The translations under genes and the position numbers were made by a program. A stretch of DNA of 11,290 nt from Candidatus Margulisiibacteriota bacterium (GTDB taxonomy: Bacteria > Margulisbacteria > WOR-1 > O2-12-FULL-45-9): assembly GCA_043816785.1 (NCBI GenBank), contig JBDRHP010000067.1:1-11290 (forward strand), given 5' to 3'. This document shows, piece by piece, positions 1-11,290 of this stretch. The notes below the pieces were generated by a model. It saw only the letters and a list, made by a program, of their open reading frames with translations. It had not been told where the DNA came from and searched no databases. Numbering within the stretch: the first letter of the stretch is position 1; the number at the start of each line of letters is the position of its first letter.

Positions 1-737
1 CCTGAGCCGACAAAAACCGCCTTATAATCCGTTAACAACTCCTTGATCGTGTAGACATTGCCGATCAGCATATCGGTCTGGATATCAACACCCAAACTTT
101 TGACATATTCAACTTCCAGGTTAACAATTGCCTTGGGCAGCCGGAATTCAGGGATCCCGTAAGTTAAGACTCCAGCCGTGACATGCAATGATTCAAAAAT
201 CGTCACCTGATATCCGAGCCTAGCCAGGTCCCCTGCACAGGTCAACCCCGCTGGTCCGCTTCCAACTACAGCTACCCTTTTACCTTTGCCTTTCGCCTCC
301 TTCGCCTTTGCCTGCGCCTTCGCCTCTGCCTTCACATTTTCCCTCTCCCAATCCGCCACAAACCTCTCCAGGTTACCTATGGCAATAGGTTCTCCCTTAA
401 TGCCTAAAATACAAACCTTTTCACACTGGTCTTCTTGGGGACATACCCGGCCGCAGATCGCTGGCAAAGCATTGGTTTCTTTGATCTTTGCAGCTGCGGA
501 AGCAAAATCACCCTCAGCCACAAATTTAATAAATGCCGGAATATCGATCTCTACTGGACAACCAGCCACGCATTTTGGTTTCTTGCAAAAAAGGCAGCGC
601 TTGGCTTCTTCCATGGCCTGTTCCGCAGTGTAGCCCATTGGCACTTCAGCAAAATCACGGATGCGCTCCGCAACGGTTCTTTCTTTCATGCCTTGCCTGC
701 CGGCAGGCAGGTGTAATCTTGGTTTTCTCTCAGCCAT
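1..737 (-). CDS. nfnB: NfnB/SudA-like flavoprotein (NADH-dependent ferredoxin:NADP+ oxidoreductase large subunit; often annotated NADPH glutamate synthase small subunit/homotetrameric). 3'-truncated by the window edge
   Basis: Not in the ORF track. Manual translation from ATG 737: MAERKPRLHLPAGRQGMKERTVAERIRDFAEV...EAKRCLFCKKPKCVAGCPVEIDIP...CGRVCPQEDQCEKVC...RVAVVGSGPAGL...GVLTYGIPEFRLPK. This has the two 4Fe-4S Cys clusters and FAD-binding motif of the GltD/SudA/NfnB family. It lies directly downstream of nfnA. ATG 689 is an alternative start. Confidence 0.9.
   Translation of the reverse strand, partial: MAERKPRLHLPAGRQGMKERTVAERIRDFAEVPMGYTAEQAMEEAKRCLFCKKPKCVAGCPVEIDIPAFIKFVAEGDFASAAAKIKETNALPAICGRVCPQEDQCEKVCILGIKGEPIAIGNLERFVADWERENVKAEAKAQAKAKEAKGKGKRVAVVGSGPAGLTCAGDLARLGYQVTIFESLHVTAGVLTYGIPEFRLPKAIVNLEVEYVKSLGVDIQTDMLIGNVYTIKELLTDYKAVFVGS
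283..332. repeat. Degenerate hexamer tandem repeat (YGCCTN) inside nfnB, encoding KAEAKAQAKAKEAKGKG
   Basis: CGCCTT TGCCTG CGCCTT CGCCTC TGCCTT at 303-332, with further units at 287-292 and 294-299. Confidence 0.65.
691..711. repeat. Short palindromic element, copy 1 (21-bp variant CCTTGCCTGCCGGCAGGCAGG), in frame inside nfnB
   Basis: Perfect 16-bp core palindrome TGCCTGCCGGCAGGCA at 694-709. Identical to the copy at 11185-11204 except for one extra T. Confidence 0.85.
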
Positions 738-745
738 TTGTTAAT

Positions 746-794
746 GGAGCCTGAGACTAAACGTCTCGGCTCCTTAGTTCCTTCCTAAAGGAAC
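746..794. other. Two adjacent stem-loops in the nfnA-nfnB spacer
   Basis: GGAGCC(T)GAGAC-TAAAC-GTCTCGGCTCC (746-773) and GTTCCTT-CCTA-AAGGAAC (777-794). No U-tract follows on the coding (minus) strand. Confidence 0.65.
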
Positions 795-802
795 CGCGAA
801 GT

Positions 803-1645
803 TCATTCGCAGGTTCCTTGTAACAATTTGCAAACATGGTCCATAGCCTGTTTTTCAACATCCTTATAAGGTTTTAAACGGTCTGATAAATCCTTAAAAT
901 CAACTTCATGGCCGTCAAATTCCGGGCCTTCCACACAAGCAAACTTGGTCTTGCCGCCAACAGTTACCCGACAAACCCCGCACATGCCGGTGGCATCTAA
1001 CATGATCGGGTTGAGCGAAACAACTGTTTTAATTTTGTGTTCCCTGGTAACATCACAGCAAACCTTCATCATGGGAACAGGGCCAACTGCGATCACCAAA
1101 TTTATCTTTTCACCTGAAGCAATTATGTCTTTTAACTCATCAGAAACAAAACCTTTTCTGCCGCAACTCCCATCATCAGTTGTAATCCTGAGTTCTGTGC
1201 TCTGTACTCCAAGTTCTTCCCGGTAAATCAGCAGATCTTCACACCGCGCTCCGATAATTGTAATGACTTTGTTCCCAGCTATTTTCAAAGCCTTAACCGC
1301 CGGATAGATCTCCGCAATCCCCACCCCGCCGCCAATAACCACCACTGTGCCAAATTTTTCAATATGTGAAGGAACGCCTAAAGGCCCTAAAAGATGGGCA
1401 ATAGTATCCCCTTCTTTTAAGGAATCAAGAACTTTGGTCGTAGCACCAACAATCTGAAAGATTATTGAAATGGTTCCGTTCTTGGTATCAGCATCGGCAA
1501 TGGTTAAGGGGATCCGCTCCGCATTCTCAGCCGGGATAACGACCACAAAATTACCCGGTTTGGCTGCCCGTGCGATATGCGGGGCATCCACAATGATGCG
1601 GGAAATATTATCAGCTAGTTTTTCTTTTTTGATGATTCTAGACAT
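803..1645 (-). CDS. nfnA: NfnA/SudB (sulfide/dihydroorotate dehydrogenase-like FAD/NAD-binding subunit with 2Fe-2S cluster)
   Basis: 280 aa with ERIPLTIAD, GPLG, GGGVG and TDDGS motifs. The C-terminal MLDATGMCGVCRV...ACVEGP has Asp in place of the first Cys ligand, as in NfnA rather than PyrK. Paired with the nfnB-like gene. Confidence 0.9.
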   Translation of the reverse strand: MSRIIKKEKLADNISRIIVDAPHIARAAKPGNFVVVIPAENAERIPLTIADADTKNGTISIIFQIVGATTKVLDSLKEGDTIAHLLGPLGVPSHIEKFGTVVVIGGGVGIAEIYPAVKALKIAGNKVITIIGARCEDLLIYREELGVQSTELRITTDDGSCGRKGFVSDELKDIIASGEKINLVIAVGPVPMMKVCCDVTREHKIKTVVSLNPIMLDATGMCGVCRVTVGGKTKFACVEGPEFDGHEVDFKDLSDRLKPYKDVEKQAMDHVCKLLQGTCE

Positions 1646-3919: not shown

Positions 3920-3981
3920 ACTATCACGATGGCAGACTACGTTAAGGGTTCGTCCCTGACAGATGTCTGCTTTCATTTTTT
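3920..3981 (+). ncRNA. Candidate ~60-nt small RNA (single long hairpin followed by a U-tract)
   Basis: Starts ~6-7 nt after the -10. Outer stem GCAGAC(3932-37)/GTCTGC(3965-70), inner stem GTTA(A)GGG(3941-48)/CCCTGAC(3954-60), loop TTCGT, then TTTCATTTTTT (3971-81). Transcription is inferred, not shown. Confidence 0.5.
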
Positions 3982-4494
3982 CAACCTGTTTTCCCATAAA
4001 TTCACAAAGGCAAAATATTTCGCAAATTTTCGCAATAAAGATGAATACCTTCTTTTGTTTGGAATAAGTAGTTTATAAAACTTATTTTTCGAGATTAAAT
4101 GTTCTATAAGACAATGAAAATCACCATCCCCTGAAATTATTATTGCCTTATCATAATTCTCTAATTCAATCATCGCTTGAAGCACAAGTTCAGCATCAAC
4201 ATTCCCTTTAACCACGCTCCCATCCTTAGATATTAATATTGGCTTAAATATAAGAATATATCCTACTTTCTGCAAATAAGTGTAAAGATTCTCATTCCCT
4301 GCTTTATAACCAATGAAGAGAAATGCCTTTTCAACTCGATATTTATTCTTCAAAAGGTAATAGAATTCACCGAAATCCAAGTCCCAACCTTTATGCAAAA
4401 GATTCCCATTTTTATCATGAATATCGTTTTTAATCGCCAGATTTAAATTTTGGCTGTCAATAAACGCATAAATGATCTCATTTTTTTTGTGCAT
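3973..4494 (-). CDS. NYN-domain (LabA/DUF88-like, PIN-like fold) putative ribonuclease
   Basis: 173 aa with the acidic motifs AFIDSQNL, KGNVDAEL and ISGDGDF. An SD-like AAGGA lies just upstream of the ATG. About 31% GC by hand count over 4021-4440. Confidence 0.9.
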   Translation of the reverse strand: MHKKNEIIYAFIDSQNLNLAIKNDIHDKNGNLLHKGWDLDFGEFYYLLKNKYRVEKAFLFIGYKAGNENLYTYLQKVGYILIFKPILISKDGSVVKGNVDAELVLQAMIELENYDKAIIISGDGDFHCLIEHLISKNKFYKLLIPNKRRYSSLLRKFAKYFAFVNLWENRLKK

Positions 4495-4552: not shown

Positions 4553-4587
4553 TCATTTGTCATTTGTAATTGGTCATTTGTCATTTC
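4553..4587. repeat. Heptamer tandem repeat (TCATTTG)x5, STRR2-like
   Basis: TCATTTG TCATTTG TAATTGG TCATTTG TCATTTC. The last unit contains the purQ stop codon. Confidence 0.85.
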
Positions 4588-5255: not shown

Positions 5256-5503
5256 TAGATCTCTTTTACCTCGAAGGAATAATCCTCAATAATTGGATTA
5301 GCAAGGAGTTTTTCGCAGGCTCCTTTGGCCTCCGCCTCCGCCTTTGCCTTTTCCTTGGCCTCAAGCTTAAGGGTAATATACTTCCCCATTCTTACGCCAG
5401 AAATCCCGCTAAAGCCCAGGGCTTCTAAGGCATGTTTAACCGTCAATCCCTGGGGATCTGCCACAGTTTTCTTGAGGGTAATTTTAACCTGTGCTTCGTA
5501 CAT
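5255..5503 (-). CDS. purS: Phosphoribosylformylglycinamidine synthase subunit PurS
   Basis: 82 aa with DPQG, VRMGKY and [13 protein letters not shown]. Its stop overlaps the purQ start by 1 nt. Confidence 0.97.
5327..5362. repeat. Degenerate hexamer tandem repeat (NGCCTY) inside purS, encoding [12 protein letters not shown]
   Basis: GGCCTC CGCCTC CGCCTT TGCCTT TTCCTT GGCCTC. Confidence 0.6.
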
Positions 5504-11034: not shown

Positions 11035-11150
11035 TCAGAGTACCAGAATATCAGAAGACCGGAGCAAAAGGATCAGATTACCAGAATACCAGAAAGATCT
11101 GATTCTCTAATACTCTGATATTCCAGTTCTGATTATCTGGTCTTCTGATA
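11035..11150. repeat. Degenerate octamer repeat array (YCAGAATA-like) followed by its inverted counterpart
   Basis: Forward units: TCAGAGTA CCAGAATA TCAGAAGA CCGGAGCA ... TCAGATTA CCAGAATA CCAGAAAG. Reverse units: TCTGATTC TCTAATAC TCTGATAT ... TCTGGTCT TCTGATA. 11049-11063 and 11136-11150 are reverse complements at 14 of 15 positions. Confidence 0.8.
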
Positions 11151-11184
11151 GTCTTGACCTTACCCCCAAAAACTGGACCACTTG

Positions 11185-11204
11185 CCTGCCTGCCGGCAGG
11201 CAGG
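11185..11204. repeat. Short palindromic element, copy 2 (perfect 20-bp CCTGCCTGCCGGCAGGCAGG)
   Basis: With its flanks TTG/CAA it forms a perfect 26-bp palindrome at 11182-11207. Confidence 0.9.
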
Positions 11205-11248
11205 CAATTAGAATTTAGTCCGATAAACTAATGCTAGGGGGTGCGTAA

Positions 11249-11290
11249 ATGAGGGGTAAAAGGTATACAGAAGAACAGATCATTGGTGCG
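11249..11290 (+). CDS. IS3-family transposase OrfA, N-terminal 14 codons only
   Basis: MRGKRYTEEQIIGA matches the (K)R(F/Y)TEEQII start of IS407-group OrfA. SD-like AGGGGG at 11236-11241. Confidence 0.75.
   Translation, partial: MRGKRYTEEQIIGA

Follow-up and report, generated by a model that had tools for sequence, protein, structure and literature searches.

A 21-nt palindrome inserted in frame in nfnB of a Margulisiibacteriota genome belongs to a dispersed 20/21-nt element with a positional link to small tRNA-linked GIY-YIG genes

The multiplication of short palindromes in bacterial genomes is poorly understood, even in the case of the REPs, as PMC8266576 itself relates. Several described systems lie close to the element considered here. 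The small GIY-YIG nuclease SsnA is reported to cut single-stranded DNA beside its hairpin, and Chenal et al. 2025 propose that NTS-ssnA-NTS units are mobile (PMC11893778). The GTAG- and CGTC-tagged REPs are palindromes of 20-40 bp, some of them intragenic, laid out as a tetranucleotide plus a hairpin (Di Nocera et al. 2013, PMC3733652; PMC8266576). The Rickettsia palindromic elements are inserted in frame into unrelated housekeeping genes (PMC10969869), and the free-standing homing endonuclease SegB is encoded by a GIY-YIG gene among the tRNA genes of the T4 tRNA cluster (PMC2330249).

Set against these, the palindrome described here resembles an SRM or REP hairpin in how it works and a Rickettsia palindromic element in how it lands, but it fails defining tests of each. 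With Ssn/NTS-SRM it has in common a small single-domain GIY-YIG gene adjoining a short, genome-dispersed hairpin repeat (here in a minority of copies) and a C after the hairpin (PMC11893778), but 0 of 172 element sites fit the degenerate SRM pattern, a quick tree places the tRNA-linked nucleases described below apart from the clade of the two NTS-flanked proteins, and the main text of that paper makes no mention of tRNA, nor is the element found in its 14 supplements. Like the products of REP/RAYT systems it is inserted without target duplication; unlike them it carries neither a GTAG nor a CGTC tag, shows no link between Y1 genes and copy number, and occurs mostly as single copies of one sequence that is identical across phyla. 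The Rickettsia elements, with about 150 bp and a range of one genus (PMC10969869), contrast with the 20-21 nt and many phyla of this one, whose basic unit is moreover no multiple of three. From MITEs it differs in the absence of a target-site duplication, 68 of 85 resolvable sites being exact, with a single repeated base at some coding sites, and no IS sharing its ends was noticed; and from SegB in that the cassettes here duplicate the 5' end of a tRNA and plug the duplicate with a hairpin, their nucleases being single-domain proteins of about 80 aa in bacterial chromosomes. It is apparently a minimal mobile element that the literature has not described: neither the exact sequence nor its peptides occur in any paper searched (a set outside which most subscription journals lie), and the element is absent from four supplementary files of Di Nocera et al. 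2013.

The window, the whole stretch of 11,290 nt analysed (contig JBDRHP010000067.1 of assembly GCA_043816785.1, Candidatus Margulisiibacteriota bacterium), contains two such palindromes (Table 1). Genomes (G), contigs (C) and loci (L) are referred to by our own handles, G000 being this genome.

Table 1. Features of the window and associated loci
Feature	Location	Strand	Remark
nfnB, 5' part (large subunit, NADH-dependent ferredoxin:NADP oxidoreductase)	window 3..737	-	truncated by contig end
Second ATG of nfnB, M17	window 687..689	-	invariant; possible alternative start with element-supplied Shine-Dalgarno-like site
21-nt palindrome variant, extra A in tail	window 691..711	-	in frame in nfnB; adds LPAGRQG
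First ATG of nfnB, M1	window 735..737	-	conserved; ATG here in 25/29 orthologues
Hairpin repeat, second family	window 747..775	.	nfnA-nfnB spacer; 8 motif matches in G000
nfnA, partner gene	window 803..1645	-	PRK06222 above cut-off
IS left end and start of first ORF (ATG 11249)	window 11155..11290	+
Perfect 20-nt palindrome	window 11185..11204	.	within IS left end
Small GIY-YIG between hairpin-plugged tRNA 5' duplicate and intact tRNA	G000 C24:5349-5810
Small GIY-YIG, same arrangement	G000 C55:2599-3010
Small GIY-YIG, same arrangement	G000 C105:4199-4750
Small GIY-YIG, same arrangement	G000 C2:1532-2000
Further GIY-YIG/tRNA cassette loci	L431-L489, L551-L580

An earlier reading of the window, referred to below as the original prediction, had taken 691-711 (CCTTGCCTGCCGGCAGGCAGG) for a palindromic element of 21 bp inserted in frame in nfnB without an obvious target-site duplication. 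Its coordinates were right, and the insertion, a clean 21 nt, is confirmed. nfnB, identified by matches to PDB chains 4ylf_B and 5jca_L at E ~1e-77, reads MAERKPRLH-LPAGRQG-MKER from ATG 737, and the N-terminal peptide expected from initiation at this codon is AERKPRLHLPAGRQGMK. When 41 genomes of the class were searched and 29 orthologous loci compared, the seven codons proved to be missing in all 29, and the gap in the DNA is exactly 21 nt, between ...TTACA and CATG; no target duplication need be assumed. For NfnB itself this is a real insertion of ordinary size. AlphaFold predictions of the protein gave a mean pLDDT of 43 without an alignment and of 58 with 29 sequences, residues 1-34 staying below 50 in the latter, and are therefore uninformative about the insert; Rfam gave no match anywhere in the window.

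At this one site, translation may begin wholly or partly at ATG 689 by means of a ribosome-binding site furnished by the element, leaving LPAGRQG outside the mature protein, a reading that we consider unlikely. The Shine-Dalgarno scores argue for it: ATG 689 scores -5.7 kcal/mol in this genome against -2.5 for ATG 737, and the orthologue medians are -0.2 for the second ATG and -5.8 for the first. As the insert thus lifts ATG 689 above ATG 737, the second start is possibly used in this genome, and similarity to the solved Nfn structures starts only at residue 14-16. Against it stands the conservation of the N-terminus M-A-E-K-K-x-R-x-H-M (R in 25/29 orthologues, last M in 29/29), in which M-A-E-K-K-x-R is kept through synonymous codon changes; the first start, 9 codons ahead of the second Met, is ATG in 25/29 and GTG in one more, and the codons upstream of the insert are intact and in frame here. 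A score at the first ATG as weak as this one, or weaker, is found in 6 of 26 orthologues, and the same ten codons of nfnB in G013 (L005) have independently received a frame-keeping insertion of their own, 24 nt in all and made of a hairpin plus TAAA.

The recurrence of the palindrome as a perfect 20-mer near the far end of the window was likewise correctly predicted, two sites being present against 0 expected in 200 shuffles. This second copy lies in the end of an insertion sequence that we take to be IS3-like, and a twin IS copy on contig C95 also contains the 20-mer. The genome as a whole holds many more than these two: within two edits of the palindrome there are 44 copies (28 perfect), and the controls, the reversed sequence and six shuffled palindromes, gave 0. 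The flanks of one pair in ribF, C6/C49, are identical, and the two are probably a single locus at two contig ends. In the class, 46 of the 65 genomes have the 18-nt core, each with 1 to 33 copies, and there are contrasts inside a genus (33 vs 3 vs 0; 13 vs 0). Across phyla the exact 20-mer occurs at 122 loci at least, those listed including Patescibacteria, Bacteroidota, Omnitrophota, Planctomycetota and Thermodesulfovibrionales; it is carried by the cultured isolates Winogradskyella echinorum, Flagellimonas yonaguniensis and Longitalea luteola, and it is found besides at 40 loci in viral contigs.

Empty sites in relatives, for which the original prediction had proposed to look, were found in other genes besides nfnB. 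The net gain is exactly seven codons relative to 5/5 orthologues each in an MBL hydrolase, ApbE, EtfA, YbeY, RarA, MutS and RibF, and relative to 4/5 in GlmS (in G007, the fifth carries a nested copy of its own at a distance of 5 nt) and to 2/3 in a second MBL protein. DnaX, Lnt and GrpE vary in length around their copies, which leaves the net gain unclean there; G013 has its own element copy in the dnaX linker. Further copies are in a TIGR03915 gene and at C-termini. A frame test was applied to 172 distinct sites of this genome and its relatives, 48 of which have homology to one and the same protein on both flanks (nfnB, with its short left flank, falls in the unclassified group). Forty-seven of these 48 coding sites are in frame, in genomes whose kinship makes them less than independent; a few low-scoring rows, the one shifted site among them, may be spurious ORFs. 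The 44 copies, the empty orthologous sites and the frame-keeping uphold the notion of a minimal dispersed element that enters in trans and is then filtered for frame. That the element is a product of chance or of assembly is hardly credible: its carriers are mostly metagenome-assembled genomes, but the controls gave 0, 47/48 coding sites keep the frame, cultured isolates carry the element, and separately assembled contigs, possibly from the source sample, span the nfnB and mutS copies unchanged (one, from sequencing run X1, covers 266-762 with zero differences). The isolates and the frame bias refute this reading. Empty alleles within the population, sought as 20/21-nt deletions in the contigs of five runs, with thin cover and the tendency of contigs to drop rare variants, were not seen at the window or mutS locus.

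The 20-nt and 21-nt forms had been expected to sort between non-coding and coding DNA by length modulo three. The coding share in this genome is 8/11 for 21-mers against 3/26 for 20-mers (Fisher P=5e-4), and in the relatives, which are not independent kin, 18/40 against 18/95 (P=0.003). Length by itself is nevertheless no sorter, since 21 of the in-frame sites are 20-mers, in which an extra junction base restores the frame in the cases checked, as in the coding 20-mers of ApbE, EtfA and RibF with one extra junction base each; and 21-mers also spread in non-coding DNA, as in G011 (L004), where a 21-mer identical to that of nfnB interrupts, upstream of nfnB, the orthologue of the 747..775 hairpin. 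An empty junction could be found for 85 of 338 sites (rows with single counts may be chance). Among the 70 of these that are 20-mers, 54 are exact, 13 plus-one and 3 minus-one, and 14 of 15 21-mers are exact; about half of the plus-one insertions are at coding sites. Insertion, we infer, is exact as a rule, and in genes the rare plus-one outcome is retained by selection. A 3-nt duplication (GGC..GGC around an 18-mer, as EtfA and RibF would allow) was considered and rejected because at tRNA and hairpin sites the gain is exactly 20 nt.

The 21-mers are stereotyped variants rather than random repairs, and are themselves mobile. The extra base occupies one of the two GGCA^GG positions in 52 of 55 21-mers (in the tail 24 C, 14 A and 4 T; in the arm 10 A), and tail variants occur in 37/65 genomes of the class and in 0/81 other genomes of the phylum. 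G036 has 40 tail variants against 5 perfect copies, an expansion that is partly hitch-hiking, as 13 of 23 examined sites in that genome lie at one position of a bulged-hairpin repeat.

The target sites were analysed with the element removed in silico (281 sites). At 11% of them the junction is enclosed by a stem of 6 bp or more, a figure that falls to 3.7% when positions 20-40 nt away are taken; a tandem unit lies at the junction in 9% against 2.6% farther off. This preference for folded or tandem DNA is present in relatives and across phyla; this genome alone shows no hairpin preference, 3% vs 3.4% (n=33). Adenine is scarce beside the element (9% vs 28%); pyrimidine|purine junctions are rarer than in the background (21/232 against 22.5%, P ~1e-7), and the flanks of the 281 sites hold no fixed target word or tag. 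Many sites, on inspection, are D- or T-loops of tRNAs or the middle of an older copy, and others lie in the loops of different repeats, where the offset varies. Short-period tandem repeats, of a kind often hosting the element in relatives, are also seen in the window at 11035-11150 and 4555-4586.

A co-occurring enzyme had been anticipated, with HUH/RAYT, GIY-YIG and reverse transcriptase proteins as candidates, and it is for the small GIY-YIG proteins that a positional link was found. This genome has six small GIY-YIG genes, four of which sit between a damaged duplicate of a tRNA 5' end and the intact tRNA. In the C24 cassette the order is tRNA-Leu 5' duplicate, 20-mer, GIY-YIG gene and intact tRNA-Leu, and the duplicate has received the 20-mer as an exact insertion as well as two other hairpins with a TAAA tail; in the C55 cassette an element copy lies immediately ahead of the tRNA duplicate. 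The C24 type of arrangement is also found in G011, G006 and G026, in a WWE3 genome, at two further cross-phylum loci and on a viral contig. Leu cassettes plugged by the 20-mer occur in G000, G011, G006 and G017 (a downstream copy); elsewhere it is Met, Lys and other cassettes. The Gln, Ser, Tyr and Pro cassettes have other hairpins, which recur within each isotype.

In all, 106 distinct small GIY-YIG proteins were assembled, 103 from 41 genomes and 3 from cross-phylum loci; 46 precede a tRNA, and a duplicate is detectable for 38. The tRNA-linked nucleases form the 67-row group that stands apart from the NTS-flanked pair in the quick tree, with members in 36/41 genomes. The group subdivides by tRNA isotype, mostly each with its own recurring hairpin, and the Leu clade has an SH-aLRT support of 86 in a preliminary tree. 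Five cassette nucleases gave no NCBIfam family above cut-off, and phage records matched the tRNA part of the cassette only. The median number of element copies is 20 where the Leu nuclease clade is present and 2 in the other genomes, kin again not being independent. In a test set of 24 genomes first examined after the cassettes had been found, the 20-mer was present in 3/3 Leu cassettes seen and in one Arg and one Met cassette, 5 of 56 listed copies lay no more than 300 bp upstream of such a GIY-YIG gene against 0.04 expected, and the 5 genomes without a close nuclease homologue had 0-1 copies; the best Leu-profile score was weakly correlated with the number of copies (rho 0.39, P=0.06).

Other results fit this link less well. 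Genomes richer in tRNA-clade nucleases do not hold correspondingly more copies (rho 0.17, P=0.29), and G004, with its two cassettes, holds zero. Four of eight Leu-clade cassettes of the first set are without an exact 20-mer, three of those holding another hairpin at the D-loop site. For G137, G125 and G139 (17, 14 and 9 copies) no cassette bearing the element turned up among the 30 matches examined out of 62, and among the cross-phylum loci with full flanks a GIY-YIG gene lies within 500 bp in 4/80, two of the four not being tRNA cassettes. The element may accordingly be mobile and its link to the GIY-YIG genes a by-product, a possibility to which we give appreciable but clearly minor weight. 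Dead tRNA copies are neutral and folded, and so may be mere landing pads, the copies being made by some other enzyme, by host repair or by template switching at folded single-stranded DNA. Most copies are indeed distant from any GIY-YIG gene, D-loop insertion points vary by several bases, with several hairpin families sharing that spot, and terminators and other repeats show the same loop preference. The surroundings of the listed 122 cross-phylum loci point the same way, GIY-YIG being the only ORF family to recur in more than two of them; by-eye inspection of the recurring ORF clusters there showed no reverse transcriptase. Three observations argue the other way: identity letter for letter across phyla implies recognition by something, the isotype-specific nuclease clades recur with their own hairpins, and the test genomes lacking a close nuclease homologue have next to no copies.

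The Y1 transposases expected of a REP-like system are the second candidate, and here the expectation was not borne out, as their number does not follow that of the element (rho 0.12, P=0.44). That an HUH (Y1/RAYT) transposase uses the element as a REP-like substrate, with CCTG at the hairpin foot as guide tetranucleotide, seems improbable to us. The absence of a target duplication and the tag-plus-hairpin geometry are as in REPs (PMC8266576); both extra-base positions follow CA, which by the rule given in that paper is the site that a CCTG guide would be expected to select; and a Y1 gene adjoins a copy upstream of mutS in both G000 and G011. Against this, G026, G023 and G015 (21, 16 and 9 perfect copies; genomes 84-90% complete) yielded no Y1 gene, and G004 has 8 Y1 matches and zero copies; the Y1-adjacent copies are nested in a different hairpin family, and the element has neither a fixed target di- or tetranucleotide nor a GTAG tag. 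The Y1 gene in question (G000 C60:7380-7960; L357), which has one internal stop in G000, lies between bulged hairpins in both genomes, with the element copy nested in a hairpin.

Taken together, a mobile element plus selection very probably accounts for 691-711, and we lean, with less assurance, towards the GIY-YIG proteins as its mobiliser. The combined reading, a non-autonomous element that small tRNA-linked GIY-YIG nucleases move in trans and that lasts in genes only if the frame survives, is in our judgement likely. The element would consist of a 6-bp hairpin and a 4-nt tail (CAGG or CANGG), like its sibling hairpins with CAGG and TAAA tails in other cassettes. The nuclease would make its nick in DNA that is folded while transiently single-stranded, and a hairpin copy would be captured there by host repair. 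Exact 20-nt insertions in genes would shift the frame and be purged, and plus-one forms would survive where loops and termini tolerate them. The observed net gain in conserved genes is 21 nt, which comes from the stereotyped 21-mer, with its extra base at GGCA^GG, or from a 20-mer plus a junction base. Some copies would then hitch-hike on larger mobile units, such as the IS end here and the bulged-hairpin repeat of G036. A bolder version can be put forward only tentatively: that a 20-base palindrome with no gene, terminal repeats or target duplication is by itself an entire mobile element; that a tRNA-parasitising mini GIY-YIG nuclease, which has this hairpin family as its partner, inserts it into single-stranded DNA that has folded; and that frame-neutral 21-base variants of the palindrome have evolved and spread themselves, writing seven-residue peptides into essential proteins.

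The element offers a minimal test case for the multiplication of short palindromes, with a substrate of 20 nt, known empty and filled sites, a candidate enzyme of 80 aa and sister genomes with 33 and 0 copies. Selection is visible on one-base length variants of a mobile element, and the same few seven-residue peptides have been added to GlmS, MutS, DnaX, RarA, RibF and NfnB. Should a lone GIY-YIG domain indeed drive precise insertion, this would be a new route of DNA mobility.

Some further features of this genome and its relatives were noted in passing. At G000 C33:2700-3550 an Ssn-like gene lies between NTS-type repeats, and at C77:4900-5600 another GIY-YIG gene splits a tRNA, within what looks on inspection like a group I intron; a clade related to this C77 protein is encoded downstream of tRNA-Gln/Asn in many relatives. 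The nfnB orthologue at G039:C13:44741-45475 has one in-frame TGA. In the window, nfnB contains an Ala/Lys-rich repeat at 296-340 (AEAKAQAKAKEAK), with similar DNA in a purS-like gene at 5320-5362, and a gene for an NYN-domain protein (3973-4494, minus strand) is inserted between purQ-like and purL-like genes. The nfnA-nfnB spacer holds another hairpin repeat family at about 790-832, with 61 motif matches in G000, which provides the stop codon of nfnA; hairpins resembling it are read in frame in mutS and dnaX.
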